A stretch of 64,000 nt of DNA from Chlamydiota bacterium. GTDB taxonomy: Bacteria > Chlamydiota > Chlamydiia > Chlamydiales > FEN-1388. How positions within the stretch are numbered: position 1 is the stretch's first letter; each line of letters starts with the position of its first letter. A model generated the notes under the pieces. That model saw only the letters and a program-made list of their open reading frames with translations, searched no databases and was not told the origin of the DNA. This document shows positions 4,698 to 50,988 of this stretch, in pieces. A program made the translations under genes and the position numbers. The stretch lies in the NCBI GenBank assembly GCA_013287775.1, contig JABDDE010000004.1, positions 2,232-66,231 of the forward strand, written 5' to 3'.

Positions 4698-4703
4698 TCT
4701 TAT

Positions 4704-4741
4704 GTCATGTGCAATTTTCCTTCAGGAAAATTGCACATGAC
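4704..4741. repeat. H-family hairpin repeat
   Basis: GTCATGTGCAATTTTCC-TTCA-GGAAAATTGCACATGAC, a perfect 17-bp stem lying between convergent genes. Confidence 0.85.
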
Positions 4742-4746
4742 GTAAA

Positions 4747-6569: not shown

Positions 6570-7459
6570 TTATCTGGGGGATGCCAAGTTACATCTATTG
6601 TCTCTTGTGTAGGGTTGAGGACAGGCGACAAAAATCTAACAAGAAATGCCACAACTTCTTGTAAGGATAATGCATTATGTTGAATTCGATGCTTCTGAAG
6701 AAAAGAATTCCACTGAGAAATTTTTAAAGGATCTGTAACAAAAACTTCAGAAAAACATTCAGGAAACGCACTCAATGGTGTGCCTCTTTGATCGAATGTT
6801 GCTTTAATAGAATGAGCCAACTGGTTACTTTTAAAAGAGAACTGATGCGCAAGAGTCCAGATATCAAAAAAATCTTTCATTCTGCTATTGAGCAAGCCTC
6901 TTTTAATCATAGCTTCCAATTTTTCCGCAATAACACTTTCCCGGGTATATGCTTGCAATGTTGGTGGAGGATAATCTAACAGAGTTGGATAGGGTAATAT
7001 TTGTGGTGCTGGTGAGATTATATCGCCAAAACCAATATCAATTTGCATATGTACGATCGCTTTATTCAAATCTCCTTCAAATTCAATTCGCACTCCCTCA
7101 TATTCGGCTTCTGTTTGAATGATTGAGCCTTTCACTGTATTGGCATAGAAACTTATGCCATCCTGACAATCATTTTGTTGACAAATTTCAGAGAAGATAT
7201 TTTCTAGGTTTTTTACTGAATTTTCAGTTTTGCCAAGAAGATCAATGTCCATTGTAGGTCGTGGGCTAGAAGTATGCCACGCCCTGAACATCAAAGCACC
7301 CTTCAAAAAAAACCTATTAGCATAAGGTGATATGGAAAGCCGATACAATAACCGCTCCATGGCATAATACTGGAGTATTTCAAGAAACGGTCTTTTTAAG
7401 ACCTTTGACTTATTGAGTAAACGATCTCGTACTGAAGCTGGTATATCACGACGACTCAT
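6560..7459 (-). CDS. AbiEii/AbiGii-family nucleotidyltransferase toxin (type IV TA / abortive infection)
   Basis: The N-terminus ..ILQYYAMERLLYRLSISPYANRFFLKGALMFRAW...PTMDIDLLG is typical of DUF1814/AbiEii. Confidence 0.8.
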   Translation of the reverse strand: MSRRDIPASVRDRLLNKSKVLKRPFLEILQYYAMERLLYRLSISPYANRFFLKGALMFRAWHTSSPRPTMDIDLLGKTENSVKNLENIFSEICQQNDCQDGISFYANTVKGSIIQTEAEYEGVRIEFEGDLNKAIVHMQIDIGFGDIISPAPQILPYPTLLDYPPPTLQAYTRESVIAEKLEAMIKRGLLNSRMKDFFDIWTLAHQFSFKSNQLAHSIKATFDQRGTPLSAFPECFSEVFVTDPLKISQWNSFLQKHRIQHNALSLQEVVAFLVRFLSPVLNPTQETIDVTWHPPDKWI

Positions 7460-8075
7460 TGATTACAGTCTCAATATAGGGTTTGATAACTTTTTCCATT
7501 CGCCCAATTTTGGCATGCTTAAGTATCATATCAAGCTTCGGATGACCTTGCAACCAATATTTCTTAAGAGCTTCAATAGCTACGTCAATGCCAATCTTAT
7601 GGCGGTATCGAAAACAATCTACCAACGTCTTTTCTTTAGAATAGCATTTTACCTGCACACCATCGAGTTCATAACTTTCAATGCCATCTTCATGAATACT
7701 TGCCGTAAACCAGAAAAATGTAACCGGAGGATAGGTAATTTTTGGCGGTTTATATCCTTGCTTTACTGCAAGGTACACAAAATGAGGAATCTGCGTGGTA
7801 AGCCCATGAAAGTAAAGAGCAGATATTAAGCAAATAACTCCAGATGGTACTTTTTTTGCTACTGTAACTAGATCAGGATTTGCATGCCCTGGCAGATTCG
7901 GGAGACAAAAAAGGCCACGCTCAAGTTGTTCAATTTTCCCCTCTCCCTTCAAGCGATATAGAGTACGGGGGTGAATGCCAAATTTAATTGCATCACTTGA
8001 GCGAAGAATACCGCCATGTGCTTGAAACACTTCGACCGCTCTTCGTTCTATAGTTGGATCTTTCTGACGAGCCAT
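7446..8075 (-). CDS. AbiEi-family antitoxin/transcriptional regulator
   Basis: LRSSDAIKFGIHPRTLYRLKGEGKIEQLERGLFCL (a winged-helix AbiEi_4-like N-terminus). It overlaps the toxin gene by 14 nt. Confidence 0.75.
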   Translation of the reverse strand: MARQKDPTIERRAVEVFQAHGGILRSSDAIKFGIHPRTLYRLKGEGKIEQLERGLFCLPNLPGHANPDLVTVAKKVPSGVICLISALYFHGLTTQIPHFVYLAVKQGYKPPKITYPPVTFFWFTASIHEDGIESYELDGVQVKCYSKEKTLVDCFRYRHKIGIDVAIEALKKYWLQGHPKLDMILKHAKIGRMEKVIKPYIETVINESS

Positions 8076-8162
8076 ACAAATTCTGGATAAATTTCACTAT
8101 ACTTATATACTTATATAGTATTTTCTATCCAGAATTAAGTCAAGACCTTATCTTCTCTTACG

Positions 8163-8318
8163 AGCGCAAAATCCAGTTGGGTTTGCCGCTCATTGGTAGT
8201 CATACAGTGACTGAACGAGATTTGTAAACAACGAGAAGATGCTCCACATGTTGCCTAAAGGGCAACATTGCTAACCCCCCATGGCAACGCCCTGGGTCTT
8301 GTTGCAATCCTCGCAGGC
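8163..8318. repeat. T-family repeat, reverse orientation
   Basis: This is the reverse complement of 3411-3550 by eye: the GCGCAAAATCCAGTTGG hairpin arm, CCACATGTTGCCTAAAGGGCAACA, and GGCAACGCCCTGGG. Confidence 0.8.
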
Positions 8319-10797: not shown

Positions 10798-10830
10798 ATG
10801 TACAAATTTTCCGTCAGGAAAATTGCATAT
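10798..10830. repeat. H-family hairpin repeat (diverged)
   Basis: ATGTACAAATTTTCC-GTCA-GGAAAATTGCATAT, in the divergent ihf/hemH intergenic region. Confidence 0.6.
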
Positions 10831-14286: not shown

Positions 14287-14305
14287 ACTGTGGGGTGATG
14301 TAGTG

Positions 14306-14345
14306 TGTCATGTGCAATTTTCCTACGGAAAAATTGCACATGACA
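14306..14345. repeat. H-family hairpin repeat
   Basis: TGTCATGTGCAATTTTCC-TAC-GGAAAAATTGCACATGACA. Confidence 0.85.
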
Positions 14346-14376
14346 AAAATAAATAGTATAACACACAGGGCGTGTT

Positions 14377-17231: not shown

Positions 17232-17596
17232 GCTGTTACCCACAAGTCAAAAGGTGCCCTGAAGCTGCTTTTAGAATGCTATTTTAAGTAGAGAGCTGAC
17301 GCAGGATCTTATGGTATGGACAGTTACAAGCCCTGGCTGCTTTTTTTTACAGGGAGAGCCACTTATAAGACCATAATGATTTCTTAGCTTTCTCTCTACT
17401 CTCCCCACTATCCAGACCTTAATCACCAATGCACCCCAGCACCCCTAACGCCTCTGACAAGCTCTCTCTGTAAGCTATCTCCTGTGGCTCTCCCTGTGAA
17501 AAAAAGTCCTCACAACTTGTAACTGCCAAAACCCTAAGATCCTGCGTCATCTCCGTGCTCTCCTCTAAACTCTCTTTTCTCTTATCGCCAAAGACG
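17232..17596. repeat. C-family long palindromic element, core-deleted copy
   Basis: The arm GACGCAGGATCTTATGGTATGGACAGTTACAAG...ACAGGGAGAGCCAC mirrors GTGGCTCTCCCTGTGAAAAAAAGTCC...CCCTAAGATCCTGCGTC. It shares most sequence with 27131-27706 and 55729-56658. Confidence 0.8.
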
Positions 17597-23225: not shown

Positions 23226-24126
23226 TGCGACAAGTTGTAGCAAGCACGAGGAGCTCACGCCCTCCATTTCCTACACACCACCGCACCATGTGGTACATCA
23301 AATGGCCTCAGGCTTTGCCCCGCTTACAGATAGCGAAGTCCAAAGCGACTGGGGCAGAGAGCTTCTCATTGGGTCGACGCTCGCCCAGGAGCAGGATTTT
23401 TATCAAGCTATCCTTGCTTTAAAACGAGCGCGCATACTACAAAAACACCATACCGGCCCGAGAACACCTATACCTCGCCAAGATCAAGTGGCCTATGATA
23501 TGTGCCTGGCATACATGCTGAGCTCTAAATATGATGTCATCACACACGCCTTCGAAACAGGAAAACTCGATGCCATCACTCCTGAAAGCCCTGTGTTTAC
23601 CTCAGCGCTCATCATCCTCTACGATGCATACCTCCATCAGAAAAATCCCGCCAAGGCGCAGGAGATATATGACGTTATTGAAAATCAATCTAAACCCAAA
23701 GCTGCGCAGCTAAAAGCATATAAAAATATTTTTACTCTTGATAAAGAAGGGCTCCTGAGTGATCCTAAAACAGAGGTGCTGTACACAAGCTATTCCGCTC
23801 GCAAAAAACACCCTATGACCGCGGGAGCGTTAAATGCTGTACTCCCGGGCAGTGGCTACGTGTATGTCGGCCAGATACAATCGGGAGTGACGTCACTCAT
23901 GCTCAACGCGCTCTTCATTGCGGCCACCTATCAATTTGCCACTCATCATCAAGTGGCGCCTGCAATCATCAGTTTTGGATTTGAAATGGGCTGGTATGTA
24001 GGCGGCATCCATGGAGCCTACCTTGCTGCTGAGGAGTACAATAATACCCTGTACTCAGCGCACGCTAATGAGTACCTGCGCAAAGAAAAATTATTTCCCA
24101 TCTTCCAGATTGAATATGGATTCTAA
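23161..24126 (+). CDS. Putative lipoprotein/secreted protein with a TPR-like region and a C-terminal two-TM segment
   Basis: The start is re-set to the ATG at 23161 (MRIGLYSMMRNSFLTLILLCLSATSC). It overlaps the 3' end of sctC. The C-terminus is AGALNAVLPGSGYVYVGQIQSG..hydrophobic. Confidence 0.5.
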   Translation: MRIGLYSMMRNSFLTLILLCLSATSCSKHEELTPSISYTPPHHVVHQMASGFAPLTDSEVQSDWGRELLIGSTLAQEQDFYQAILALKRARILQKHHTGPRTPIPRQDQVAYDMCLAYMLSSKYDVITHAFETGKLDAITPESPVFTSALIILYDAYLHQKNPAKAQEIYDVIENQSKPKAAQLKAYKNIFTLDKEGLLSDPKTEVLYTSYSARKKHPMTAGALNAVLPGSGYVYVGQIQSGVTSLMLNALFIAATYQFATHHQVAPAIISFGFEMGWYVGGIHGAYLAAEEYNNTLYSAHANEYLRKEKLFPIFQIEYGF

Positions 24127-24127
24127 T

Positions 24128-24164
24128 ATCATCTATCATTTCCTTTCAGGAAATGATAAATGAT
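24128..24164. repeat. Hairpin repeat (H-like variant)
   Basis: ATCATCTATCATTTCC-TTTCA-GGAAATGATAAATGAT, immediately after the stop codon. Confidence 0.6.
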
Positions 24165-24194
24165 ATTAAAAAGAACGCAGACTATCAGGATCTC

Positions 24195-24660
24195 GCCACG
24201 GTAGTGGCATATGCATCAGGCTAAGGGAGTTGGTATAATAAACGTTATGGCTGATATAGGCTTCTGGGGCATTTTTCACCACAGAGTGCACAGAGGACAC
24301 AGAGAGAACAGGACCAAAGATGCATTTTCAGCGAGCGTATGCTCGCTGAAGTCCAAACATATAAAAATCGCATGGCAAATAAATTTGCCAATCGATTTTT
24401 ATATGCTTGGACTTTTCCACTTTCAGTGGAAAAATGCATCGAACACCCCAAACTTCTCTGTGTGCTCTGTGTCCTCTGTGGTAAAAAAATTGCCAAATCA
24501 GGGATTTACAGGGCCGTGGCCTTAGCCTGATGCGTATGCGGTAGTGGCGAAATTTGCGGCTCTAGCCCCGCGTGAAGCACAGGTCGTGCGCATGCGCACG
24601 GCCTGGCGGAACGTGGGGTTTGGGGAAACAGTAAAAAAAACAGAGCTGCGGTAGCAGCGA
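24195..24660. repeat. Composite repeat: an inverted-repeat-bounded element with a three-way-junction core (24319-24440), plus a P-family half element (24550-24660)
   Basis: The outer inverted repeat pairs GCCACGGTAGTGGCATATGCATCAGGCTAAGG with CCTTAGCCTGATGCGTATGCGGTAGTGGC. The inner inverted repeat pairs CACAGAGTGCACAGAGGACACAGAGAG with CTCTGTGTGCTCTGTGTCCTCTGTG. Confidence 0.8.
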
Positions 24661-24667
24661 CACAGAA

Positions 24668-25066
24668 ATGTCTAGAAAAGGAAATATGTCAATTTTTCAC
24701 AACAATATAATTGCTCTTATTGTGTATAGCATCTGCTTATATTGCCCATTATTGGCAGCAGTTGAGCCTTGGGGGCAAGATGCGGATATGGTGTCTGAAA
24801 AACCGCCCGAAACTATACATCATGACAGCGTTGGCTTCAACACTATCATTACCTTTCACCAACGCATAGTCTCACCTGCAGATGGCCCTAGAAGCCATTT
24901 TTACCCGAGTAGCTCGCAATATATGCGGCTCGCAATACGAAAATATGGATTTTTCACAGGGTTTTGTATGGGCTGTGACAGACTCATGCGGGAAAACAGC
25001 GACCCCTGGTTCTACTCTTTTGTCCAGACCAAGGATGGACAGCTACTGAAACTGGACCCGCCGTAA
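24668..25066 (+). CDS. YidD-like (membrane protein insertion efficiency factor family) protein, Cys-less variant with a signal/anchor
   Basis: IITFHQRIVSPADGPRSHFYPSSSQYMRLAIRKYGFFTGFCMGCDRLMREN aligns by eye with E. coli YidD ([35 protein letters not shown]...KRVLKCHP). Confidence 0.55.
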   Translation: MSRKGNMSIFHNNIIALIVYSICLYCPLLAAVEPWGQDADMVSEKPPETIHHDSVGFNTIITFHQRIVSPADGPRSHFYPSSSQYMRLAIRKYGFFTGFCMGCDRLMRENSDPWFYSFVQTKDGQLLKLDPP

Positions 25067-26976: not shown

Positions 26977-27130
26977 ATACTACTACCCCTCGCAAGCGAG
27001 GGGTAGTAGTGTATGTTATTACTGCTCCACGCTTACAAAAAAAATCAATCTTAAAGCTATGATTATACCCTATTACGAATATGGAAAGCAACATACAAGC
27101 TCTCTTGTCAACCTCACGCTGCCGCCCATA

Positions 27131-27706
27131 CTGTTACTCACAAGTCAAAAAGTACCCTAAAGCTACTTTTCAGGATGCTATTTTTAAGATAGATAGTGCC
27201 ACGGCTTGGTGACAAAGAGAATAGAGAGTTTAGAGGAGAATAAGAGTGGACGCAGGATCTTACGGTATGGAAAGTTACAAGTATTGGGAGCTTTTTTTAA
27301 GAGGGAGATCACAGAGGTGCAGAGAGAAGTCTGGGCTGTGCGATGCATTTTTCCGCTGGAAGCGGAAAAGTCCAGACATATAAAAATAGACTGACAAATT
27401 TATTTGTCAGTCTATTTTTATATGTCTGGACTTCAACGAGCATATGCTCGTTGAAAATGCATCTTTGTTGCTTCTTATAAGCCCATAATGATCCCTCAGC
27501 TTTCTCTCTAATCTCCCCACTACCCAGACCTTTCTCACCAACGCGCCTAAGCACCCCTAACGCCTCTGACAAGCTCTCTCTGTAAGCTTTCTCCTGTGGC
27601 TCTCCCTGTAAAAAAAAAGTCCCCACAACTTGCAACTGCCAAAACCCTAAGATCCTGCGTCATCTCTCAAGTCTCCTCTAAACTCCTTGCTCTCTTGCCG
27701 CCCAGG
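27131..27706. repeat. C-family long imperfect palindrome (about 0.5 kb) with an intact three-way-junction core (27342-27463)
   Basis: The left arm (27205-27318) is the reverse complement of the right arm (27592-27706). The core has a perfect 30-bp central stem. Copies lie at 17232-17596, 55729-56658 and 24195-24549. Confidence 0.85.
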
Positions 27707-29444: not shown

Positions 29445-29457
29445 AATACGTTTTTTT

Positions 29458-29654
29458 CGTCATGTGCGATTTTCCGAAGGAAAATCGCACATGACTCCCC
29501 CCACGTTCCGTGCAGGGCGTGCGCTAATGCACACGCCCGCACTTCACGCGGGGCTAACCACTGCCGCCACTACCGTGGCGGAGCTGCCAGTTCCATTAAA
29601 TTCCCAACATTTTTTCGTCATGTGCGATTTTCCGAAGGAAAATCACACATGACG
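29458..29654. repeat. Composite: two H-family hairpins flanking a P-family module
   Basis: The first hairpin, CGTCATGTGCGATTTTCC-GAA-GGAAAATCGCACATGAC, is at 29458-29495. The second copy is at 29616-29654. Between them lie CCCCACGTTCCG..GGGCGTGCGCTAATGCACACGCCC..CACGCGGGGCT and GCCGCCACTACCGTGGCGG. Confidence 0.85.
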
Positions 29655-31583
29655 CTACACTTCTTTCAGGGCTTCTATCACCATAGCGGGCGTTAAGATT
29701 TCGGGAAGAAGTGTCGGCGGGTCATTTTCGTTTTTCCCATAAAGCGCATATACAGGCACGCCATTTCTCCCAAGCGCACGAAGGGCTTTTGTGATTTTTT
29801 CATCATTATTGGTCCAGTCAGCCTCCATTTTAACAACGCCATAACGAATGAAGGCCTCTTTCACAGAAGCGGCTTCGAGGACAAGACTGTTTGCCTGGCA
29901 GGTAAGGCACCACTTTGCCGTAAAATCGACAAATACAGGAATATGGGCCTTACGATATTCTGCAAGCTTTGTTGCAGAATAGGGCACCCACTCGGCTCCG
30001 ATTACAGCCCGGCTCTGAGGCTCTTCCAAGAGCAGCGGCATTTGCGGACGCGATACCACCTCTGCCGTTTTGACTTCATACAAAAATAGAGCGACCCCGG
30101 CAAGGAGAATAAGAAATGAAATCGGCTTTACTATGGCTCTCAGCATCTTGCCTCTATCAAAACCACCCCACGTACCATACACCCACAACCCGAAACTCAT
30201 GAGGAAAAAGGCAGCAAAAAGGGATGCTAAAGGCAAATTGGAGGTTTCAGCCTCAAGCACCCACAAAAGCCAGAAGATCGTTGCAAGCAAGAAAAAGCCC
30301 ATAAGCTCTTTAAATGTTACCATCCAGCGTCCAGGCCGCGGTATCCACTTAAGAAGTGATGGAAATAGGGAAAGGAGAAAATAGGGAAAGGCCATGCCTA
30401 TACCCAAACAGGTAAATACAAGAAATGAATAGATGGGATCGAGTGTTGCGGCGAAGCCAATAGTTGAGCCAAGGAGTGGCCCTGTACAGGGAGTTGCTAC
30501 AATGGTTGCCAAGATGCCACTCCAGAATGAAGTCAGGGGGGAAGTGGCCACTTGAGCGATAGGTGAGCCTACTTTGGCAATCTCGTCAAGATGCGCGGCG
30601 ATTGAGGCAACCTTGGTACCAAATTCAAAAACCCCAAAAAGGCTTAAGCTCAAGATAAAAAGAATAATAACGAGAATGGCTACAAATAGTGGCTCTTGTA
30701 ATTGAAATCCCCAACCCACTGTTGTACCAAGCATTTGAAGCACGAAAATTGCCCCAGCCAATATCCAAAAGCATAAAATTACCCCACACGAAAAAGCAAC
30801 ACCATGTTTTACTGTGGTGCCTCTTCCCTGCCCTTGGAGCTGCACAAAATGCAGCACCTTCAAACTCACTACCGGAAGCACACAAGGCATGATATTGAGA
30901 AGCATACCGCCGAAAAACGCAGAAAGGAGTATGAGGAGAAAATTTGCTGAAAAAATACCTTGAATATGAGTGAGCGTCCGTTTATACCAGCTTTGTGCCT
31001 CGATTTGTGGCTTTACTCCATAAACGGGCGCTTTTTGCTCCGCTTCATTCTGCTGTAGCCCTTGGCGCGCTTTTACAAAAATATCTTTACACTTATCTGA
31101 TTTTTGTGGTGGGCCAGCTGCAGCCATGATAGAGAGCGAGACATCTGTTTTGCCCGGCACACATAGCGTTGAACAGGCAATCCAAGAAATAGTTGCTTTG
31201 ATAGTATACTCTGTACTCTGTGCAGTCGTGGCTACTTGGAGCGGAATCAGGCAATAGGTCGTGCCCGTGTATCCAAAACCGGTAACACCTCCCTCAGTAA
31301 ATCGTTCGGGCTGTGGCCATTGTATTTGCCCTATTTGAATGCCTTCAGGAAGCGTCCAGGAAATAATAGGGGGGCCATTGATATTGTTACTGCCCGGCCC
31401 ATACAAATGCCAACCAGGTTCAATGGTAAAGGCCATGAGGAGAGAGGCATCATGGCCTGGCTGCAGTGTTTCATCTTCTGCGATGAGCTCTATGTTGACA
31501 ATGTTTTGAGAGCTGTTTGCAAAAATATGCACTCCAAAAAATGCCTGGAGCGCTACAATAGCTAGGATAATATAGTGTTTCAT
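29655..31583 (-). CDS. dsbD: Thiol:disulfide interchange protein DsbD
   Basis: MPCVLPVVSLK, TPCTGPLLG, and the C-terminal thioredoxin WCLTCQ. The start is re-set to the ATG at 31583 (MKHYIILAIVALQAFFG); the track start at 31604 is TTG and lies inside a hairpin repeat. Confidence 0.85.
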   Translation of the reverse strand: MKHYIILAIVALQAFFGVHIFANSSQNIVNIELIAEDETLQPGHDASLLMAFTIEPGWHLYGPGSNNINGPPIISWTLPEGIQIGQIQWPQPERFTEGGVTGFGYTGTTYCLIPLQVATTAQSTEYTIKATISWIACSTLCVPGKTDVSLSIMAAAGPPQKSDKCKDIFVKARQGLQQNEAEQKAPVYGVKPQIEAQSWYKRTLTHIQGIFSANFLLILLSAFFGGMLLNIMPCVLPVVSLKVLHFVQLQGQGRGTTVKHGVAFSCGVILCFWILAGAIFVLQMLGTTVGWGFQLQEPLFVAILVIILFILSLSLFGVFEFGTKVASIAAHLDEIAKVGSPIAQVATSPLTSFWSGILATIVATPCTGPLLGSTIGFAATLDPIYSFLVFTCLGIGMAFPYFLLSLFPSLLKWIPRPGRWMVTFKELMGFFLLATIFWLLWVLEAETSNLPLASLFAAFFLMSFGLWVYGTWGGFDRGKMLRAIVKPISFLILLAGVALFLYEVKTAEVVSRPQMPLLLEEPQSRAVIGAEWVPYSATKLAEYRKAHIPVFVDFTAKWCLTCQANSLVLEAASVKEAFIRYGVVKMEADWTNNDEKITKALRALGRNGVPVYALYGKNENDPPTLLPEILTPAMVIEALKEV

Positions 31584-31592
31584 AACCATTAA

Positions 31593-31633
31593 CGTCATGT
31601 GCAACTTTTCCTTACGGAAAAGTGCACATGACG
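31593..31633. repeat. H-family hairpin repeat
   Basis: CGTCATGTGCAACTTTTCC-TTAC-GGAAAAGTGCACATGACG. Confidence 0.85.
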
Positions 31634-31724
31634 GAAAAATTTTAAGGAAAATGGATTACCCAGCTTAGAGCAACCGCGAAGCGGCTGGAGAAGCGGGGAA
31701 CAAACAACCATTCCGCATACTACG

Positions 31725-31761
31725 CCATGTGCACTTTTCCATAAGGAAAAGTCGCACATGG
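31725..31761. repeat. H-family hairpin repeat
   Basis: CCATGTGCACTTTTCC-ATAA-GGAAAAGTCGCACATGG. Confidence 0.8.
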
Positions 31762-31801
31762 TATAAACATATATTGTACATAACTTAGGTGGATTTTTAC
31801 C

Positions 31802-32518: not shown

Positions 32519-32574
32519 TCCACTTACCACAATGTAAGTACAGCTTTCTCTCTTCGCCACTGTCCAGACCTTTC

Positions 32575-33430
32575 CCTGTGCTGTTGCAATTGTTGCCCTT
32601 CAGGCAACATGTGGGGCATCTTCTCGTTATTTAAAATCTCATTCAGTCACTGCATGGCTACCTATGAGCGCAAAATCCAACTGGATTTTGCGCTCATAGA
32701 AAAAAATGTTACTGCTTAACATATTATTAGATAAAAATCAAAAAATGGTTTTTGGAGTTTGTGTAGGCTATAATATTGCCAAAATTCATGCATGTTTCAA
32801 TGGTATGATTGTTCACCCAATACGTGGAAGTGCCATAGCCCCCGCCACGGTAGTGGCGGCTGGTGTTAGCCCCGCGTGACCGTGGGAGCACGCATTGCGT
32901 GCGACCGAGGGAACGTGGGGTTGGGCAGCGGTTAAAAAACAGAGCTGCGGTAGCAGCGAAACCCATTTGTGTTGACATATTTAACGTACATATTATTGTT
33001 ACAGATACAATTCTGTTTCGCTGCTACCGCAGCTCTATTTTTATTTATGCATCTGTAACCCCACGTTGCGCCGGCCGTAGCGCACGCGCTACGGCCGCGC
33101 TCCACGCGGGGCTAATGAATTCCACCGCTGCCGCGGTGGGGTCCATATCAACTAGAATCTTAATATGTTACGCGTTTGCCTTAAGTTGACACCACTCCAG
33201 CCTTAGCCTGATGCGTATGCCACTACCGTGGCGGGGGCTATGACACTTGCGCGTATTGGGTGAACAGTCATGTCATTGAAACACGCATAGATTCTTGCAA
33301 AATTATGGCCTACGCGATGCGTAAAACCATTTCTGATTTTTTATCTAATAATAGCTTGAAACAGTAATATTTTTTACACGAATCGAGAGTGAAGGGCAAC
33401 AACAAAAAAAAGTCGCACATCGCGTAAACA
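32575..33430. repeat. Giant imperfect palindrome built from T-, P- and other modules
   Basis: Positions 32704-32856 are the reverse complement (most positions, by eye) of 33219-33378. The centre is the hairpin AGAGCTGCGGTAGCAGCG (32941-32958) / CGCTGCTACCGCAGCTCT (33019-33036). A T module lies at 32575-32700, with its partial reverse complement at 33391-33430. Confidence 0.85.
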
Positions 33431-33550: not shown

Positions 33551-35845
33551 ATGACTACCAATATGAATACGGGCATGAGCCCAGCATTATCAAGGCAATT
33601 TGAAGCAATTAGAACATATGTTCACGGCGCACCCAACACGCAGCGTTTGGTGCTTCAGGATGGTGAAGTGAGGTGTGTATCGGAGACCCAGTCCACTGCA
33701 TCGTTGGCCCAGAGAGCTATCGCAAACCGTGTGGTGACTGTTATGCAACAGTACCAAACATTTCAGAGCACTACTGATCCTACGATGAGCGACCTGATAA
33801 CAGCAAGCACAGACCCATTACGTTTACCGACAGAGCGTAGTCAAGCTGTGCGAGACATCTTATTTCCACACGCCTCGTTGCCTTCTACAATGAGCTCTTC
33901 ATCACTATCATCATCCTCGTCCTCGTCACAATCGTCCTCGTCACTATCATCATCGTCACAATCATCATCGTCTCTATCATCACCAACACCTATGGCCACT
34001 GACAGGCCCAGAATAACCCGACCTCGTGAAGAGGCACCAGAAGAGGCAGAGACTGGTCACAGGCGACGCCGAGCCAGAATTGAGCCTACCACGTATACTG
34101 GGCAAGTAAGAAACCTTTTAGGGACAGTCTTACCGCCCGATCTACACACTCTCGTGCAAGAATACGCAGGCCCTCCTGACACCTTAAGAGGCCTAATGCA
34201 CATGATACCCACGACACTCTCTCAAGCAGAGCGAAGAGAGCGGTTTAAGACAATTATTACTGATCCGGCCATCAATGTACCTATTGTCAATCAGCTCTTC
34301 GATGAGGCTGACCTAAACGTCGTGAAAAATAAACCTGTGCTTCGGCAGCTGTTCACTGACGTGAATGGCAACGTCGATGAAGGAGCGTTACATACATTTA
34401 TATATGATATTTTTATGGGCATTATAGCTCAACCAAGCCCGGAGATAACTATTGTACGCAAATTATTTGATTTCGGCACGACTCCTGCTCCCTTTTTAGC
34501 TCCCGCTCACGTGTTTTTGCAAGCCCTATGCGGGGGAGACATAGAAAAACACTCGCGCTGTATGGCAGCTCTTTCGCAGCATGTGTGGAATTTTATGCCA
34601 TCTGATGAAAATCACTGCCGTATGGCTGTAGAATATGTATGCTTACTTCCTCAAGAAGAGCGCATTCCTCTTTTTCTGAAAATGATTACACAGCCAGGTG
34701 GGAACCCGCATATTGCCAACTTCATCCTTCGTGAATCTGGTTTTAGTGAGGCAGGAATAAGACAAAACGAAGTGCTCCAAGACATATTTGGAAGTACGAA
34801 TAACACTCAATTGCGAAGATGTACGCAATCTCTATACGATAATAGGCTGAAGACACTACAGAGAACCGATGAGTTTAGCAATATTCAAACCTACATATGG
34901 TCACTTCCACCCGAACAACGCCAAAACGCTTTTTATGAGCTTCTTACTCAAGATGGCTCCGACAACTTAGTGAAATTGTTTTTAATAGAGATGTGTGATG
35001 ATGATGGCAACATCTCCTATGAACAAATGAAAAATAATCCTTTCCTTCGTGAACTATGTAACAACAATGAAACAACGCTCAATCAACTTCTCGTGCGTAT
35101 TTTTGAAGAAATATTTAAATCAGCAGCCACCAATTATAGACTTTTGAACCACATCTTAGCCGATCCAGAAGTCGGCTATAACGTAGATCGCATATCGCAC
35201 TCTACGCTTCTTACCTCATTATTTACGATAAATGGAGACCTCGATGCACCGGCATTAACTACATTTATTAATACCCACGTTGTGCCGAATTTATCCCAGC
35301 TGGGTGGTCTTAACCTGGAAGCTCGAGTAACTGACAGGCGATTCATAGACTTATGTACACAAGTCACGGAATTATATAATACTAACGAGGACAATATAAG
35401 CGAGGCAGATCTGGCGGACATGATTAATCGACTCCCTCTGGTAAATGACCTAGACATTGCTGTACATGATGGCTCGTGTCTGGGATTGATAACAGAACCA
35501 GAACGAATACTACATTTAGAGGTCAGTCTGCCCGGTGTTTTGGATCCACATTCCTTAGCCACGCTTATGTTTGACATAGGTCGCTTTACTCAGCTCCAGA
35601 GCTTAACGGTGGCAGAGAGCCCTGGGCAGCTACTTACTGATACCGACTTACAATACCTTCTCTCTCTAACCGAGCTTGACTATCTGAATCTTTCTGGCCA
35701 AGTGCAGCTGACCGATGCCTGCATCGATACTCTTTTGCAGCTTCCTTCTCTTGAGACAGTAGATTTGAATGATTGTGACAACTTAAGTCTTGATGGTGTA
35801 AACCGACTACGCGCACGAGGCATTAATGTCCTGATTGACGATTGA
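33551..35845 (+). CDS. Eukaryote-like putative effector, paralog of 14377-16725 (poly-Ser, basic patch, F-box-like motif, C-terminal LRRs)
   Basis: GAGGAAG RBS. Shared blocks include QPGGNPHIANFILRES, DIGRFTQLQSL and DLQYLLSLTELDYLNLSGQVQLTDACIDTLLQLP. LPPDLHTLVQEY follows HRRRRARIE. Confidence 0.7.
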   Translation: MTTNMNTGMSPALSRQFEAIRTYVHGAPNTQRLVLQDGEVRCVSETQSTASLAQRAIANRVVTVMQQYQTFQSTTDPTMSDLITASTDPLRLPTERSQAVRDILFPHASLPSTMSSSSLSSSSSSSQSSSSLSSSSQSSSSLSSPTPMATDRPRITRPREEAPEEAETGHRRRRARIEPTTYTGQVRNLLGTVLPPDLHTLVQEYAGPPDTLRGLMHMIPTTLSQAERRERFKTIITDPAINVPIVNQLFDEADLNVVKNKPVLRQLFTDVNGNVDEGALHTFIYDIFMGIIAQPSPEITIVRKLFDFGTTPAPFLAPAHVFLQALCGGDIEKHSRCMAALSQHVWNFMPSDENHCRMAVEYVCLLPQEERIPLFLKMITQPGGNPHIANFILRESGFSEAGIRQNEVLQDIFGSTNNTQLRRCTQSLYDNRLKTLQRTDEFSNIQTYIWSLPPEQRQNAFYELLTQDGSDNLVKLFLIEMCDDDGNISYEQMKNNPFLRELCNNNETTLNQLLVRIFEEIFKSAATNYRLLNHILADPEVGYNVDRISHSTLLTSLFTINGDLDAPALTTFINTHVVPNLSQLGGLNLEARVTDRRFIDLCTQVTELYNTNEDNISEADLADMINRLPLVNDLDIAVHDGSCLGLITEPERILHLEVSLPGVLDPHSLATLMFDIGRFTQLQSLTVAESPGQLLTDTDLQYLLSLTELDYLNLSGQVQLTDACIDTLLQLPSLETVDLNDCDNLSLDGVNRLRARGINVLIDD

Positions 35846-35891
35846 TTTTTTCAGGTTCGGACACCTATTCTTCTCGATGCAACTTTTATGG

Positions 35892-35928
35892 CATGTGTCC
35901 TTTTTTTGAAGGAAAATAACACATGACG
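35892..35928. repeat. H-family hairpin repeat (degenerate)
   Basis: CATGTGTCCTTTTTTTGAAGGAAAATAACACATGACG. Confidence 0.6.
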
Positions 35929-35999
35929 AAAAGTTGCTTCTTTTTTTTCCGATTCATGGTATGGTAAGGGGATAACAAACTCAAAAAGGAGTACAACCT

Positions 36000-36413
36000 A
36001 TGAAAAAAAATGGCAAAAAGATGCAGAAACGATCCATCACCCTCGTGGAATTGATTGTCGTTATTGCACTTATTGGTATAATTACAGGGGCTTTGGCGTT
36101 TAACTATCGTGGTAGCCTGGAAACAGGACGAGCATTTAAAACACGAGAGCTCATCAATAAAATCGAGCAGCTTAGTGCCATCGCTTCAGCAGAAGAAGGC
36201 ACTGTCGATCCTAAAGTCATTGAGCGCAAGATCAAAGAATCGCCTCTTTTGACAGAAGATGATCGCCAATTAAAAGATGCATGGAAACAACCTATTAGCA
36301 TTGAGTATGATGCACAACAAAATCGATTTACCGCTAAGTCCCAAGGACTCAACGACTATGAAAAGCACAACAAACCAAAACCAGGCTCTAACCAAAGTGG
36401 ATCCTCAGGATAG
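36000..36413 (+). CDS. Type II secretion major pseudopilin (GspG-like)
   Basis: AAAGGAG RBS. The prepilin-type N-terminus is KRSITLVELIVVIALIGIITG. The C-terminus KDAWKQPISIEYD resembles the GspG DPWGNDY region. Confidence 0.65.
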   Translation: MKKNGKKMQKRSITLVELIVVIALIGIITGALAFNYRGSLETGRAFKTRELINKIEQLSAIASAEEGTVDPKVIERKIKESPLLTEDDRQLKDAWKQPISIEYDAQQNRFTAKSQGLNDYEKHNKPKPGSNQSGSSG

Positions 36414-37017
36414 TCACAAGCCCCTTCGGGGGCTTTCATTCTCTCTTATAGAACTAATCATTGTTTTGTTATTTATCTCAACACTGGGTGTTTGGGCAGC
36501 TGTGCGCACGATGCGCAGTGTGGATAGTACAAAATTCCGTTCAGACTGCAAAGCCCTTCAAGAAAGGGTGTACAGTGCTTTAGATCTTGCACAACTTACT
36601 AATGGCAGCGTCACTCTTATTATTAATCGTGAAATAAAACGCACCCCTTCTGGCAAAACAAAACAGACATACCTCACCACAGCGCTCAGTGGCACCCAGT
36701 TTACTGAAAAAGCCGGCCGTGTCGGCGGCCTTGTTGCAAAGCTCCAGACGCAAGGATTAATACCTGCACTCAAAGACCAAACTTTCCATAAATTTCCCAT
36801 AAAACTTACCTTCAATGCTGCTGGAGAGTGCATTTTAGAAACTGAGAAGCCAGTGCACATTACAGAACTACTCATCTATCCTCCCACAACAAACGCTCAG
36901 CCTGCTATAATAATGCTGGCGAGGCCTACATATGTTGATCCATCTCTCTCAGAGCACATGTACAAGTACATTCCCATCAGCAAAAAGCAGACCCAAGCAC
37001 CCAACAACCAAGGGTAG
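36358..37017 (+). CDS. Pseudopilin-like protein
   Basis: GLSFSLIELIIVLLFISTLGVWAAV is a prepilin-type segment. The start is uncertain (in-frame ATGs at 36277, 36307, 36310 and 36358). Confidence 0.5.
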   Translation: MKSTTNQNQALTKVDPQDSHKPLRGLSFSLIELIIVLLFISTLGVWAAVRTMRSVDSTKFRSDCKALQERVYSALDLAQLTNGSVTLIINREIKRTPSGKTKQTYLTTALSGTQFTEKAGRVGGLVAKLQTQGLIPALKDQTFHKFPIKLTFNAAGECILETEKPVHITELLIYPPTTNAQPAIIMLARPTYVDPSLSEHMYKYIPISKKQTQAPNNQG

Positions 37018-37414
37018 ACGACATTTTACCTTGGTTGAGGTCATGGTAGCTATGACGCTGCTGATTATGGTTGGCTTTACCTTTTTGAAAGCTGACTCAA
37101 GATATGCAAGGCAACTTGCTACGGCAAAAAAAAGCGCAGAAGTCGACCGGGTACTCTATATTGCAGCCGGCGCTTTTTTGGAAGAGCTATATAAGAATCA
37201 AATACAGCTCGAAAAAAGCACCCGCCTCTTGCTTGACCGCTACAAAGCTATGAACTGGACAGCTACCTACACCATCGACCGCAAAGAGTATGCAGAAAAA
37301 AAAGCCACTCGTCTCAGTGTTTGCATCGAGCTGTATCACCCTGATTATAAAGCATTTTTAGAGCAGCACCCAACTGACAAAACAACATTTACCTTTCTTG
37401 TAAAACAAACATGA
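36932..37414 (+). CDS. Pseudopilin-like protein
   Basis: RHFTLVEVMVAMTLLIMVGFTFL is a prepilin-type segment. It overlaps the upstream gene. Confidence 0.5.
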   Translation: MLIHLSQSTCTSTFPSAKSRPKHPTTKGRRHFTLVEVMVAMTLLIMVGFTFLKADSRYARQLATAKKSAEVDRVLYIAAGAFLEELYKNQIQLEKSTRLLLDRYKAMNWTATYTIDRKEYAEKKATRLSVCIELYHPDYKAFLEQHPTDKTTFTFLVKQT

Positions 37415-38124
37415 AAAAACCCCATACAAAAAGATCCTTCACGATTATTGAGGTGACTATCTCCGCAGTCCTTTTTGCCTGCATTGTGAGCTCAGTTTTT
37501 GGCTATTATCGATGGCACACACTGCTCTCTCAATGCTTCCTTGTAAAAAAAGAAGAAGTAGCAAAAGAGCGACTTATGCAAACACGCCTCGCTGAAGTGT
37601 TTGCAAGTATACGCTATTCGTGTTCGCGCTCACCAGAAGATGGATTCTTCTTTACATTGAGCAATCCCCACGACCGTTACGGAGAAAGATTAATTTTTAA
37701 TTTTAAAAATACAGCCGACAGTGACTATGCGCTTTCAGGCCCGGTAATTGGAACATTATTTCTGAATAAATCATCAGGAAAATCTGAAGGGACACTGACG
37801 CTACTTATGTGGCCAGCGCCGCAAAACAAGCTAAAAAAGCCAACAGAGCATATGCGCCGCATAGCGCTCCTTGACAATGTAGAGTCATATTCTCTAGAAT
37901 TTTGGGTTCCTAAAAAACTCCATAGGTATACTAAGGGGAAAGAAGCGAGCGCCTCAAAAACGCTCAATTCTGCTATACAGCTACCAGAAAATGAGTGGAT
38001 CTCATCATGGAAGCAAGAATATCTTGCTATTCCCCCGATGATACGTCTTACTATAACTAAGGACAAAAAACCCCAGGCCTTTCTCTTTTTTATCCCGAAA
38101 GGCATACAAGGGATTGAGGCATAA
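37411..38124 (+). CDS. Pseudopilin-like protein
   Basis: KRSFTIIEVTISAVLFACIVSSVF. ATGA overlap with the upstream gene. Confidence 0.55.
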   Translation: MKKPHTKRSFTIIEVTISAVLFACIVSSVFGYYRWHTLLSQCFLVKKEEVAKERLMQTRLAEVFASIRYSCSRSPEDGFFFTLSNPHDRYGERLIFNFKNTADSDYALSGPVIGTLFLNKSSGKSEGTLTLLMWPAPQNKLKKPTEHMRRIALLDNVESYSLEFWVPKKLHRYTKGKEASASKTLNSAIQLPENEWISSWKQEYLAIPPMIRLTITKDKKPQAFLFFIPKGIQGIEA

Positions 38125-39087
38125 ATGCAAATTCTTTTTCTCACTCTTGGTTTCATATCGCTATTTCTCATTTTTGCAACTGCTGAGCTGCAAAAATCCC
38201 AGGAGCTTCGTGTGACGGATACTATCTTCACGGAGCATCTTACACAAAATGCCCTCGTTTGTGCGAAGAAGCTCAAAGAAGAAGTGCAAAGTGAGGTAAA
38301 AAAATTTCGTCGTATACCTGGCTCTGCAAGGACACTATCACGCCATTTGCATATTCACTTCTTGTTCCATAAAAAGGAAGAATCGCCGCATCAGTATAAA
38401 GACCTCGTACGTCGCCTCTTTATAAAACTCCTCCAAAGCCTCTATGAGCAGCAAGAGTTTTTCCAGAATGCAGTACGACAAGATCCTCAATTTCTTGAAC
38501 ACTTCGTACAGCGGCTCGTGGAAAAAAGCCAGCTACTCTATGAAGAAGGCAGGCTTGAGAGCGCCTCTGATCTTGCAGCTGCCTGCCTCAACGATCGGGA
38601 ATATCAGGATATTCTCTACAAAATGGTAACCGGCAATCGGCCACGCGATCGGAAAAAAAATATCCCCTTAGACACCTATTATCCGCCGCTCTCTGATTAT
38701 ATTGCCATTATGCCTCATGACAGCGACCAAAAATACATTGCCTACCCCTTCCTTGCCCGAAAACCAGTTCTCGACACGATCTTTGACGCACAGACTACCG
38801 AGCACATTCTTCAGATACGCAAGACCATCTGGAAGGAGGTGAGCAATAGAAACAGTAATAATTCAGCTCCTACTACCAATACTGCGAGCGTTGACGATGA
38901 TGAAGACGACGATGACGATAATGCGAGTTCAAAAGATCCTCAAGTAGCAAGCCAGGCCCAAAGACGACAGCAAATAAAAGAACAAAAGAAAATGCAGTTT
39001 GAGAAAGAGTGCCAGCCCACTATCCCACACGACATCCCCGCCTCGCTCCTCTATTTTGGAGTCTCGAGTACCGAGCCGTGGGAGTGA
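38125..39087 (+). CDS. Membrane-anchored hypothetical protein at the end of the pseudopilin operon (GspK-position)
   Basis: The start is adjacent to the upstream stop. It has an N-terminal TM segment (MQILFLTLGFISLFLIFATA) and an acidic run (VDDDEDDDDDN). Confidence 0.45.
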   Translation: MQILFLTLGFISLFLIFATAELQKSQELRVTDTIFTEHLTQNALVCAKKLKEEVQSEVKKFRRIPGSARTLSRHLHIHFLFHKKEESPHQYKDLVRRLFIKLLQSLYEQQEFFQNAVRQDPQFLEHFVQRLVEKSQLLYEEGRLESASDLAAACLNDREYQDILYKMVTGNRPRDRKKNIPLDTYYPPLSDYIAIMPHDSDQKYIAYPFLARKPVLDTIFDAQTTEHILQIRKTIWKEVSNRNSNNSAPTTNTASVDDDEDDDDDNASSKDPQVASQAQRRQQIKEQKKMQFEKECQPTIPHDIPASLLYFGVSSTEPWE

Positions 39088-39183
39088 TATTGATTAAAGC
39101 CCTATGCAATGCTCAGTCGCTTCGCTCCTTGCGCTTGCACAGGGCTTTAATAAAAAAGACTTAACATACCTCTTTCCAAAATT

Positions 39184-39272
39184 TACGATCATTCGTCGCA
39201 AGAAACCTGCTGTTCAAAACACACTGATTGCCATACCTTTTCATCGATACAATGTTTTTGCAGATACCGATA
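39184..39272 (-). pseudogene. Relic copy of the 3' end of the caspase-like gene
   Basis: Positions 39184-39272 match 39938-40073 apart from one internal deletion of about 47 bp. The relic still reads ..SVCFEQQVSCDE-stop, compared with SVYFEQQFFCDE-stop in the intact gene. Confidence 0.6.
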
Positions 39273-39937
39273 ACCCTACGTTTCGCTGGGTCATGCGCAT
39301 GCCCGTGCTCCACCAGGCCATAGCCTCCACCACGGTAGTGGCGAAATGCAGCCCTAGCCCCGCGTGCAGTGAAGGCCGCGCGCGGCGGCGCGGGCCGAGC
39401 GGAACGTGGGGTTTTGTAACCAATCAGAACCGAGCCACGGTAGTGGCGAAATGCGGCTCTAGCCCCGCGTGCAGTGAAGGCCGCGCGCGGCGCGCGCGGG
39501 CCGAGCGGAACGTGGGGTTTTGTAACCAATCAGAACAGAGCCACGGTAGTGGCGAAATGCGGCTCTAGCCCCGCGTGCAGTGAAGGCTGCGCGCATCGCG
39601 CGCAGGCCGAGCGGAACGTGGGGTTAGAGAAACGGGTAAAAAAACAGAGCTGCGGTAGCAGCGACACAGAATTGTATCTGCAACAACAATTATGTGCATT
39701 GATTATGCCACACACAAATGGGTTTCGCTGCTACCGCAGCTCTATTTTTATTTCATGCACCTGTAACCCCACGTTTCGTAGGCCGTAGCGCGTCCGCGCT
39801 ACAGCCGCGCTCCACGCGGGGCTAATGAATTCCACCGCTGCCGCGGTGGGGTCCATATCAACTAGAAGCATAATATGTTACGCGTTTGTCTTAAGTTGAC
39901 ACCACTCCAACCTTAGCCTGATGCGTATGCCTCTACC
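39273..39937. repeat. P-family composite element with the left arm triplicated in tandem (about 105-bp unit at 39330, 39435 and 39541)
   Basis: The unit is CCACGGTAGTGGCGAAATGCGGCTCTAGCCCCGCGTGCAGTGAAGGCCGCGCGCGG..CGGAACGTGGGGTTTTGTAACCAATCAGAAC. The central hairpin is at 39647-39743. The right arm is at 39768-39850. Confidence 0.85.
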
Positions 39938-41818: not shown

Positions 41819-41918
41819 TTTACATGCTCCTTTTAAGTGGATTGCAAAGTTTTTGTGGACTTGCCTACACGGTAGCATATCGTTTTTTGATTTGTCAACA
41901 GAAAAAATATAACACCTT

Positions 41919-41946
41919 GCGTACTTTTCCTGGCGGAAAAGTACGC
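41919..41946. repeat. H-family hairpin repeat (short variant)
   Basis: GCGTACTTTTCC-TGGC-GGAAAAGTACGC. Confidence 0.65.
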
Positions 41947-42086
41947 ATGCCGAACAGGGATAACACGTCTCCATCATGACACTTTTTCGCTGCAAAATCG
42001 TCATCTGAATGACGTTTTTTCCAGGAAATTGCGTCACGATTGCTATTCTCCTGCCCTGAGTTTACGAAGGGTAGGAGAAAATTACG

Positions 42087-46046: not shown

Positions 46047-47510
46047 TTACGTCCGTTTATAGAGGATCGCTTTGTTAGACTTATGTGGATCTACAATAGC
46101 AGGAGGCAAAATAATACCTAAGGACTCACTGATAAAGGCATAAAAGAGTGGGTCGGTTCCGCCAAGAATGTGGTTTTTGGTTACGGATACGCCGCCACCA
46201 AAAAAGGCACTTGAGTGCCCATGAGGATCATAGAGCACTTCTTGACGCTTCCATCCCTTCTTCCCAGCCGCATACACAATAACTCCGCCCTGACAGGCGC
46301 CCTTAGGACCTTGTCTCCATGCGTCAGCAATAGCCGCTGTATCGCCATCCAAAGAGACGTGTAAAAGCCCAGTAAGGTTGGTATTATGGCTATCAGAAAA
46401 GGCCTTGTGCACTCGCTTCAGGGATTTTTTACCCTTACTATCCTTTAGAATTTCATAAAAGTAGAAGGCACCAGCAAAATGATGACGACGAGTGCGGTTT
46501 TCAAATGGAGCGCTAATGAGAGCCCATTTTTCATTCACTGCAATCGCTGCACCAAAGGCATCTCCAACGTCTGTAGGGTCGCCGCGTAAGCTGGATACAA
46601 CATCTTGTGTTTTTGCTATGAGAGGTACTATGGTCGTGGATTTTTTCTGATCACCATGTACTCGCTGTCTAAAGCGCCATTTTTTGCCTTCTCGCTGGAA
46701 AAGATACACCGAAGTCGGTGTGGCTTTTGGAAATGGGAAAATAGGGCTTGCACCAATGAGAGCTACATCGTCTTTGATAGCCACATTGGTTCCAAAGGTA
46801 TCGTTTTTGCGCACCTTTATTGGGTTTGAAATCTTTTGTATAAACTGCCACTGTCCTGTTTTCTTATTGAGATCAAATGCATAGACGACACCAGCATTTC
46901 GTTTCCCCTTCTTTTTTTGTCCTTGAGCAGAGACGAGAAGATGGCCATTTTTTGCATCTAGGCTCAGCGTAAAGCCGAAATTAGCCCCTTCTTCATAGGC
47001 ATTTGATGGCGGGAAAAAAGTAAAATTCGAATTAGCGCGTGTAAGTCCTTGAAGCCCTGGGCTATTTCTGTCGAGCACTTGCCATTTGTCCCACAATCCT
47101 GTTTCATGGTTCAATCGATAGAGTACTACCGACCCTTTAAGATCAAACCCATCAACACCTAGTGTGACAACACTCGAAATGGCTAACCAGTCCCCGTCAG
47201 AATCAACCTGAAAGAGGCCAAGCAGATTATCAAACTGAGTGGTAATAATCTGTTGCTGTTTCCATTTGTGTCCATCCTGTTTATAGACATATACTGCTCC
47301 TGCTTCTGACGCAAATGTTAATGGAGCTGCAACAAAGATATAGCTACCATTTTTTTTCACTGCGGACCCAAAATCAGGACCTATACTACCGACCCCGGTA
47401 AAAATTTCTGGCTTGAGCACTGTCTCAAGCTTAAACTCTTTTGCCGTTATTTGCCCTGTTACTCCCGCGACAAGCGCGGATAGGCAAAGTATTTTTTTGA
47501 AAATTTGCAT
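46047..47510 (-). CDS. Secreted FG-GAP/integrin-alpha-like beta-propeller repeat protein, tandem paralog 1
   Basis: The start is re-set to the ATG at 47510 (MQIFKKILCLSALVAGVTG signal peptide). There are repeated FG..(V/I)A(V/I)....(A/L)L(I/V)(G/S)AP units (FGSAVKKNGSYIFVAAP, FGTNVAIKDDVALIGASP, FGAAIAVNEKWALISAP). Confidence 0.6.
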   Translation of the reverse strand: MQIFKKILCLSALVAGVTGQITAKEFKLETVLKPEIFTGVGSIGPDFGSAVKKNGSYIFVAAPLTFASEAGAVYVYKQDGHKWKQQQIITTQFDNLLGLFQVDSDGDWLAISSVVTLGVDGFDLKGSVVLYRLNHETGLWDKWQVLDRNSPGLQGLTRANSNFTFFPPSNAYEEGANFGFTLSLDAKNGHLLVSAQGQKKKGKRNAGVVYAFDLNKKTGQWQFIQKISNPIKVRKNDTFGTNVAIKDDVALIGASPIFPFPKATPTSVYLFQREGKKWRFRQRVHGDQKKSTTIVPLIAKTQDVVSSLRGDPTDVGDAFGAAIAVNEKWALISAPFENRTRRHHFAGAFYFYEILKDSKGKKSLKRVHKAFSDSHNTNLTGLLHVSLDGDTAAIADAWRQGPKGACQGGVIVYAAGKKGWKRQEVLYDPHGHSSAFFGGGVSVTKNHILGGTDPLFYAFISESLGIILPPAIVDPHKSNKAILYKRT

Positions 47511-47574
47511 ATACCCTCCATATTGGTATGTTTGCACCATATGCAAACTACTTAGTTTAAATCTACTGAAAAAA

Positions 47575-50887: not shown

Positions 50888-50945
50888 GTACGAATAATAT
50901 ACCACAACTTTGGCCAAATTACCACTATGCGTCTGGCCTATTTTC

Positions 50946-50984
50946 GTTATGTGTCATTTTCCGATAGGAAAATTGACACATAAC
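50946..50984. repeat. H-family hairpin repeat
   Basis: GTTATGTGTCATTTTCC-GATA-GGAAAATTGACACATAAC. Confidence 0.85.
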
Positions 50985-50988
50985 ATGA

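Follow-up and report, generated by a model that had tools for sequence, protein, structure and literature searches.

The window analyzed here, a stretch of 64,000 nucleotides from an uncultured Chlamydiia MAG, encodes the chlamydia-type enoyl-ACP reductase FabI (PRK06300), a PknD-like kinase, a secretin, an SctQ/FliN protein, and a DUF687 protein, as well as large ankyrin and LRR proteins, a set that constitutes Chlamydiae markers. The best relatives of FabI are metagenomic proteins with 82-84% identity or less, and the lower matches, with 72-79% identity, come from MAGs called Chlamydiia, Parachlamydiaceae, and Protochlamydia. Six plus-strand ORFs at 33551-39568 (764, 246, 160, 237, 320, and 154 aa) have no Pfam match and are flanked on both sides by GC-rich repeat clusters. 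Two neighboring FG-GAP-repeat paralogues at 46047-49026 share ~78% DNA identity over ~1.5 kb, which represents a tandem duplication. Tandem repeats of smaller units are found at 39283-39599, where three 106-nt units of 64-96% identity lie over the end of the ORF 39104-39568 and beyond it, and at 52361-52467, where slightly more than three 32-nt repeats (ATGGTCAAAAAATAAACCAAAATTCCAAAACT) are located at the start or just upstream of an AAA_14/DUF4143 ATPase gene (50989-52464, minus strand).

Between the genes, the window contains three copies of a 122-nt module, at the positions given in the initial annotation: 27342-27463 on the plus strand (copy 1), 56202-56430 on the plus strand (copy 2), and 24319-24440 on the minus strand (copy 3). 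All three are intergenic, and the 13-mer GATGCATTTTTCC has exactly three occurrences in the window. Neither a sensitive self-BLAST nor a covariance model (CM) built from the copies located a fourth copy in the window, complete or partial. Copy 1, which scores 143.7 bits with the CM, and copy 2, which carries a 107-nt insertion and is 229 nt long in total, belong to subfamily I. The inverted copy 3, identified by fold, alignment, and CM, differs from copy 1 at 16 positions and represents subfamily II.

The folding calculations confirm that all three copies adopt the same closed three-way junction, composed of a 10-bp closing stem, a short hairpin (hairpin 1), a long central hairpin, and a third hairpin (hairpin 3). 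In copy 1, these elements are the closing stem GATGCATTTT/AAAATGCATC, hairpin 1 CCGCT-GGA-AGCGG, a perfect central hairpin of 29-30 bp, and hairpin 3 CAACGAGCATATGCTCGTTG. Copies 1 and 3 give the same fold with each strand taken as RNA and with the copy-1-sense strand treated with DNA parameters. Their minimum free energies are -73 to -78 kcal/mol for the 122 nt, with z = -13 to -18 (-18 for copy 1), and 200 dinucleotide shuffles produced no fold of equal stability. The opposite strands of the module were found to be nearly equal in folding strength. A perfect 30-bp central hairpin, previously attributed to all copies, is present in copy 1 alone; in copy 3, the corresponding stem is interrupted by an internal loop of 2 bp and contains one G.T pair. 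When the plus strand of copy 2 is folded as RNA, hairpins 1 and 3 and the closing stem are all retained, as are the lower 23 bp of the central stem.

The 107-nt insert of copy 2 (56252-56358, plus strand), delimited by alignment, folding, and BLAST, had been placed exactly at the apical loop. Its actual position is ~7 nt before the loop, where it separates element positions 50 and 51 of the 5' arm and weakens the apical stem. The description of copy 2 as keeping every stem is correct only roughly, as mismatches affect two of the seven apical pairs that lie beyond the insertion point. BLAST detected no second copy of the insert in the window. The insert has small hairpins of its own, CTATGGAC-TAAA-GTCCATAG, together with two ACTAAAGTC motifs, and could represent a further small mobile sequence.

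The module had not been recognized as any described RNA family, in agreement with a search of the whole window against the curated families of Rfam 15, among them three-way-junction ribozymes such as the hammerhead, which gave no hits at the gathering threshold. At E values up to 10, the search returned only generic long-hairpin miRNA models, with 17-36 bits versus cutoffs of 46-200, plus unrelated weak matches.

Nested Inverted Repeats around the Module

Each copy of the module is embedded in further inverted repeats. In the outer element of copy 1, the left arm (27222-27341, plus strand) comprises a T-run and, after it, a purine-rich CACAGAG-like segment, and it shares homology with the left flank of copy 3, while the central part and the right arm (27464-27700, plus strand) start with TTTGTTGCTTCTTATAAG. 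The corresponding left and right parts of copy 2 are at 56062-56201 and 56431-56641 (both plus strand), the former being 94% identical to 27202-27341. The inverted arms of the outer element are ~100 nt each in copies 1 and 2. In copy 3, the left flank (24441-24492, minus strand) has a T-run and three 9-nt NNCACAGAG repeats and forms a terminal inverted repeat (TIR) with the right flank (24273-24318, minus strand), in which TTTGGTCCTGTTC is followed by inverted CTCTGTG repeats and an A-run. This TIR amounts to ~27 nt, from three 9-nt units per side, and a further inverted repeat lies outside it. Folding of the regions 27222-27700 and 24186-24552 results in long outer stems around the intact module. 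BLAST shows that the similarity between the subfamilies runs past the module junction (27305-27472 versus 24476-24310), and the left flank, i.e., the T-run and the CACAGAG-like segment, can be aligned between them over ~50 nt.

The outer element also occurs without the module. At 17291-17553 (plus strand), a paralogous "empty" form has its left and right parts directly joined, and at 55735-55948 (minus strand), a half element starts exactly at the sequence found 3' of the module (TTTGATGCTTCTTAG). The empty form could be a deletion derivative. Together, these two loci indicate that the coordinates of the 122-nt unit seem to bound a discrete module. The module is one layer, the innermost, in a stack of inverted repeats, and since palindromes are here placed inside a palindrome, a three-way junction is what results on folding. 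All copies may share one ancestral arrangement, and the 122-nt module by itself would be a putative mobile unit.

No clear direct repeat that could represent a target-site duplication was found at the boundaries of the module or of the composite elements, nor at the junction defined by 17291-17553 and copy 1. The surroundings of copy 3 contain an imperfect direct repeat of 12-13 nt (TTTGGGGTGTTC / TTTGGTCCTGTTC), and an AAAA repeat is present inside the module. A target motif cannot be derived from the copies, since their surroundings are homologous.

The window is also rich in other repeats. GC-rich palindromic families, with members such as GCGCTACGGCCG...CGCGGGGCTAA and AACAGAGCTGCGGTAGCAGCG, are found at 991-1218, 24563-24671, 29533-29581, 32915-33187, and 39611-39937. 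They are intergenic and co-occur in varied order and orientation, constituting a second mosaic repeat system. Inverted repeats of 147 nt with 82% complementarity, at 3411-3557 and 8151-8297 (also at 32571-32707), bracket a 4.6-kb segment with an AbiEii/AbiEi toxin-antitoxin pair (6560-8075), an SDR gene, and hypothetical genes; this segment could be a repeat-bounded mobile or invertible unit. The small palindromic intergenic repeats of this Chlamydiia genome, of which the 64 kb contain at least six or seven families, are unusually dense and multilayered. Such a repeat load is of some interest with regard to the spread of repeats in intracellular bacteria and to the question of why MAG assemblies break at such sites. 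An independent short-read assembly, the Logan assembly of run SRR8434706, contains the same FabI gene on a contig that ends ~240 nt upstream of it (window 26977-27216), which by coordinate conversion is near window position 27216, at the edge of the repeat region. The module CM has no match on this contig. The position of the contig end fits the notion that the repeats break assemblies and are under-represented in MAGs.

Base-Pair Compensation and Constraint

Copies 1 and 3 differ at 16 of the 122 positions, and ten of these differences make up five fully compensated pairs: 14/22 (GC to AT), 34/85 (GC to AT), 47/72 (AT to CG), 53/66 (AT to GC), and 95/110 (AT to GC). Three of the pairs had been listed before, correctly, and those at 34/85 and 53/66 are additional. 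Among the remaining differences, one results in a G.T wobble and four result in three broken pairs, two of which are adjacent in the central stem while the third is beside the loop of hairpin 3. The sole unpaired change is located in the loop of hairpin 1. In 200,000 simulations with 16 independent substitutions, five or more compensated pairs were obtained with a frequency of 1.5e-5, and the frequency of outcomes with at most three broken pairs was 0.011. The former value shows that the compensation is real and not due to chance. Copies 1 and 2 share flanks of more than 150 nt at 92-94% identity, which makes them copies of one composite rather than independent copies, and the five compensated pairs therefore all fall on the single split between the two subfamilies. 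A shuffle control of the pair count, in which the observed number was reached in 9 of 500 cases, reflects this limit.

The constraint is not uniform over the module. The closing stem is unchanged in all three DNA copies and none of the seven junction bases differs, with the rest of the module being 13% diverged. Pairing is kept in 97% of the cells in the module, compared to a complementarity of ~76% in the outer arms of the same loci, where many transversion mismatches are found. Together with the five compensated pairs, this difference bears out the earlier view that the fold is maintained beyond the sequence, and it argues for some force that acts on the module specifically. Candidates for this force are a lineage selection for a foldable strand with conserved ends, as in REPINs, and a distance-dependent, hairpin-templated correction.

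We have considered the possibility that the compensation is purely mutational, i.e., that the copies are decaying, nonfunctional repeats in which close inverted repeats are kept complementary by template switching or hairpin-templated correction, with no selection involved. Such a process would be consistent with the restriction of the compensation to tightly looped hairpins (2-4 nt spacers) and the decay of the distant outer arms, as well as with the large insertion carried by copy 2 and with the similar behavior of an unrelated hairpin family (see below). However, the arms of the closing stem are 102 nt apart, a distance at which correction should be inefficient, and yet this stem has no substitution in any copy. 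In addition, the two adjacent broken pairs of copy 3 have been left "uncorrected". A purely mutational origin is thus highly improbable in our view. The invariance of the closing stem over this distance argues instead for a constraint on its sequence, as in a terminal repeat that is recognized by a protein. The ATGCAT contained in the arms of this stem was also considered as a methylation- or restriction-type site, and it was found not to be enriched (35 observed versus 30 expected). The occurrence of GATGCATC in the window is at chance level.

The five compensated pairs, the 97% pairing, and the invariant junction and closing stem would also suit a functional structured RNA. This could be an sRNA transcribed from the copy-1 plus strand and ended by the closing stem and a U-rich tail, or a cis-acting element in read-through transcripts, such as a terminator, an insulator, or a stabilizer, as proposed for ERIC, Correia, and bcr1. 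Indeed, a T-rich tract TTTGTTGCTTCTT is located 3' of the closing stem in the plus sense of the element, all three copies have the same orientation, antisense to the flanking genes (3/3, P = 0.25), and the non-Watson-Crick pairs in the module favor the copy-1 plus strand, with ~5 G.T versus 1 A.C (P about 0.11; one of these cases is deduced from the peptide P0123 described below). The bcr1 repeat, which is transcribed and shows compensatory changes, provides a precedent. However, neither the orientation bias nor the wobble bias is significant, and the outer arms, with 11 G.T versus 14 A.C, display no strand bias. The orientation and the T-rich tract can be taken as no more than hints, and the wobble bias of the module would suit an RNA and a strand-specific ssDNA intermediate alike.

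Further observations speak against an RNA. A scan with promoter and terminator consensus sequences revealed no conserved promoter upstream of the copies and nothing common between them; the only promoter-like sites occur on the two strands of the copy 1 palindrome, and copy 3 lacks them. A perfect A/U-rich duplex of 29-30 bp, as in the central hairpin, is atypical of bacterial sRNAs. To this can be added the nearly equal folding of the two strands, the lack of an Rfam family, the tolerance of copy 2 to the 107-nt insertion and to lost apical pairing, and the confinement of the conservation to one MAG. On balance, we regard a functional RNA as unlikely. The initial annotation had combined the covariation with the insertion into an argument for the maintenance of the fold. 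The paired changes are real, as shown above, while the insertion, which disrupts the upper stem, provides no evidence of selection on the fold, and a single insertion event says little in any case. The covariation does not by itself point to RNA here.

A Covarying Hairpin Family in the Same Window

A second, REP-like hairpin family has at least 11 copies in the window, mostly just 3' of genes, with the consensus CGTCATGTGCAATTTTCC-N4-GGAAAATTGCACATGACG and an 18-bp stem. Its sites are 4700-4745, 10798-10830, 14303-14348, 24124-24168, 29455-29499, 29613-29657, 31590-31636, 31720-31766, 35886-35931, 41910-41955, 50942-50988, and 52516-52560. In an alignment of ten copies, 8 of the 18 stem pairs covary, with changes on both sides. 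This family thus covaries as much as the module does, and the covariation is therefore not special to the module. Palindromic repeats of the mobile type covary as a rule, and two unrelated families in this one window do so. For genome scanning, this means that covariation in a repeated element, even when strong and real, is not proof alone of an RNA gene.

Several copies of the REP-like family have a CGTC/GACG head at their start or end. A survey of CGTC-tagged REPs reported no CGTC repeats in the PVC group (Di Nocera et al. 2013, PMC3733652), and the present family may be a CGTC-type REP family in this group.

The motif TTTTCC-N(3-10)-GGAAAA occurs 12 times in the window versus 0.04 expected, and three of these 12 occurrences are hairpin 1 of the module. 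We have also examined the possibility that the closing stem and hairpin 1 of the module derive from a REP-like hairpin that a later insertion, accompanied by duplication of AAAA, has interrupted. The CM of the family gave no match, and an HMM search with the "reconstructed" hairpin, from which the inner palindromes had been removed, resulted in an E value of about 1-2, which makes this origin no more than speculative.

The core shared by hairpin 1 and the CGTC-headed family, TTTTCC...GGAAAA, is one of the observations that would fit a role of the module as an ssDNA hairpin substrate of an HUH/Y1 enzyme, i.e., a RAYT or an IS200/IS605 TnpA. As with PATEs or REPINs, the folded strand would be excised and inserted without target duplication, and no target-site duplication is visible at the junctions. 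The hairpins, with conserved bases and variable stems, resemble those of REPINs, and a strand-specific intermediate would be in line with the slight G.T bias toward one strand. On the other hand, the ends of IS200/IS605 elements lack terminal inverted repeats, unlike the module with its symmetric 10-bp TIRs. The module has no GTAG or CGTC head, the HMM and CM of the REP-like family give it no significant match, and no Y1/HUH transposase was found among the scanned ORFs of the window. Moreover, CGTC-type REPs have no known dedicated transposase (PMC3733652). Mobilization by such an enzyme appears quite improbable on these grounds.

The module itself could also be under selection as a structured nucleic acid, either a new strand-specific ssDNA recombination substrate or a small or cis-acting RNA family of one lineage of environmental chlamydiae, residing inside older MITEs. 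The 97% versus ~76% pairing, the closing stem kept across 102 nt, and the one-strand G.T bias are compatible with this reading, which we consider improbable. Should the module turn out to be an RNA or a new ssDNA substrate, the family would be new, if a modest one; the evidence at hand makes it an ordinary repeat.

Distribution and Relation to Known Repeats

Searches for the exact closing-stem pattern in 185,579 species-representative genomes and for the exact 5'-half pattern in JGI metagenomes gave two chance hits each, without resemblance to the element. A profile of the peptides encoded by the two open frames of the element matched three clusters among 5.8 billion protein clusters, two from the contig of the window itself and one from a 12.6-kb contig present in NCBI and JGI. 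The cluster look-up provided one more member, on a 13.7-kb contig from the same sources (NCBI, JGI), and no element-derived ORFs were found beyond this MAG among the 5.8 billion clusters. The two extra copies, represented only by the peptides of spurious ORFs (P0123/P0124 and P0125), are taken to belong to the same MAG, giving at least five copies in this Chlamydiia MAG, three as DNA and two as peptides. Both are of the copy-3 subfamily, and one adjoins outer-element sequence (FFTGRATGE, from TTTTTTACAGGGAGAGCCACAGGAGAG). The peptides P0123 and P0125 are compatible with the same closing stem.

In the nearest relatives, the ~95 kb of sampled loci contain neither of the two families searched for there, the module (by CM) and the REP-like motif, and the synteny around the copies is not kept, so that these loci offer no orthologous empty site. 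The literature search on repeats in Chlamydiae found nothing specific. For a repeat family, restriction to a single genome and a location within other repeats are typical of selfish DNA, and not of a conserved RNA gene.

The module is probably a MITE-like mosaic repeat, lineage-specific and mobilized in trans, with conserved ends and an interior that is maintained only as structure. Of the two options initially proposed, an RNA family or a DNA-hairpin substrate, mobile DNA in general fits better, considering the nesting, the outer copy without a module, the occurrence in one lineage, and the intergenic location. MITEs are noncoding elements smaller than ~500 bp with dispersed intergenic copies, and the module, with 122 nt and three copies in the window plus two elsewhere, has these properties. 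It also has terminal inverted repeats, in the form of the perfect 10-bp TIR that is invariant in all copies. Some observations do not follow directly from such a reading. The pairing in the module, far above that of the outer arms, calls for some active constraint, and the excess of G.T on one strand is in the direction expected of an RNA or a strand-specific ssDNA. Furthermore, no target-site duplication can be defined, and no transposase was found within the 64 kb in a scan that covered 49 of the 52 ORFs with at least 150 aa.

As a MITE-like repeat, the module would spread as DNA, mostly within the composite elements, by means of a recombinase or transposase encoded outside the window. The sequence-specific part would be the invariant TIR GATGCATTTT/AAAATGCATC with the junction bases, while the three internal palindromes would require only self-complementarity. 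Two reasons for the latter can be envisaged. The element may be handled as a folded single strand in transposition or replication, or its tight hairpins may be re-symmetrized by hairpin-templated repair or template switching, such that the arms would be kept complementary. Read-through from neighboring genes would give the same fold in the transcript, which may affect termination or stability. Such an influence would be a side effect and would not speak for an RNA gene.

Several known repeat systems can be compared to the module. PATEs, which derive from IS200/IS605, have different subterminal hairpins, no TIR, and no target-site duplication, and they insert 3' of a fixed tetra- or pentanucleotide. 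The symmetric 10-bp TIRs set the module apart from them, and its lack of a target-site duplication is compatible with them. In Correia elements, the TIR is 26 bp long and a TA duplication is present. Like the module, BIMEs of E. coli, pneumococcal BOX, ERIC, and Correia elements occur between genes, with modules together or apart, and have strong folds in transcripts (general knowledge and review PMC3184786), and some copies of ERIC carry internal insertions at fixed sites. None of these has a sequence relation to the module, and BOX modules are arranged in tandem whereas the module is nested. CGTC-tagged REP families share their CGTC/GACG ends with the REP-like family of the window, whose core TTTTCC...GGAAAA is common to hairpin 1; between the module and this REP-like family, there is no significant similarity by CM and HMM.

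REPINs and REP doublets, found in Pseudomonas and others, resemble the module in being short, noncoding, intergenic, and confined to lineages. They also have highly conserved ends and an interior for which only hairpin formation is needed, and it has been stated that "compensatory changes ... are common" in them (Bertels & Rainey 2011, PMC3116915). An alternative multibranched ("clover") fold has been discussed for REPINs as well. REPs are imperfect palindromes of 20-40 bp that carry a GTAG or CGTC head and often occur as inverted doublets, which does not describe the module. Unlike REPINs, the module has no such head and no RAYT in the window, contains three distinct palindromes inside instead of a single spacer, and has a low copy number so far (at least five).

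The bcr1 repeat of the Bacillus cereus group (~155 bp) is likewise MITE-like, of a similar size, and scattered in a nonconserved distribution, and its predicted multibranched, cruciform-like structure is kept by compensatory changes (PMC3184786). The bcr1 repeat has 5-bp direct repeats at its ends and has been shown to be transcribed, and there is no sequence similarity between it and the module. Most likely, the module family is itself new and of a sort already known, namely that of the REPIN- or bcr1-like MITE-type repeats.
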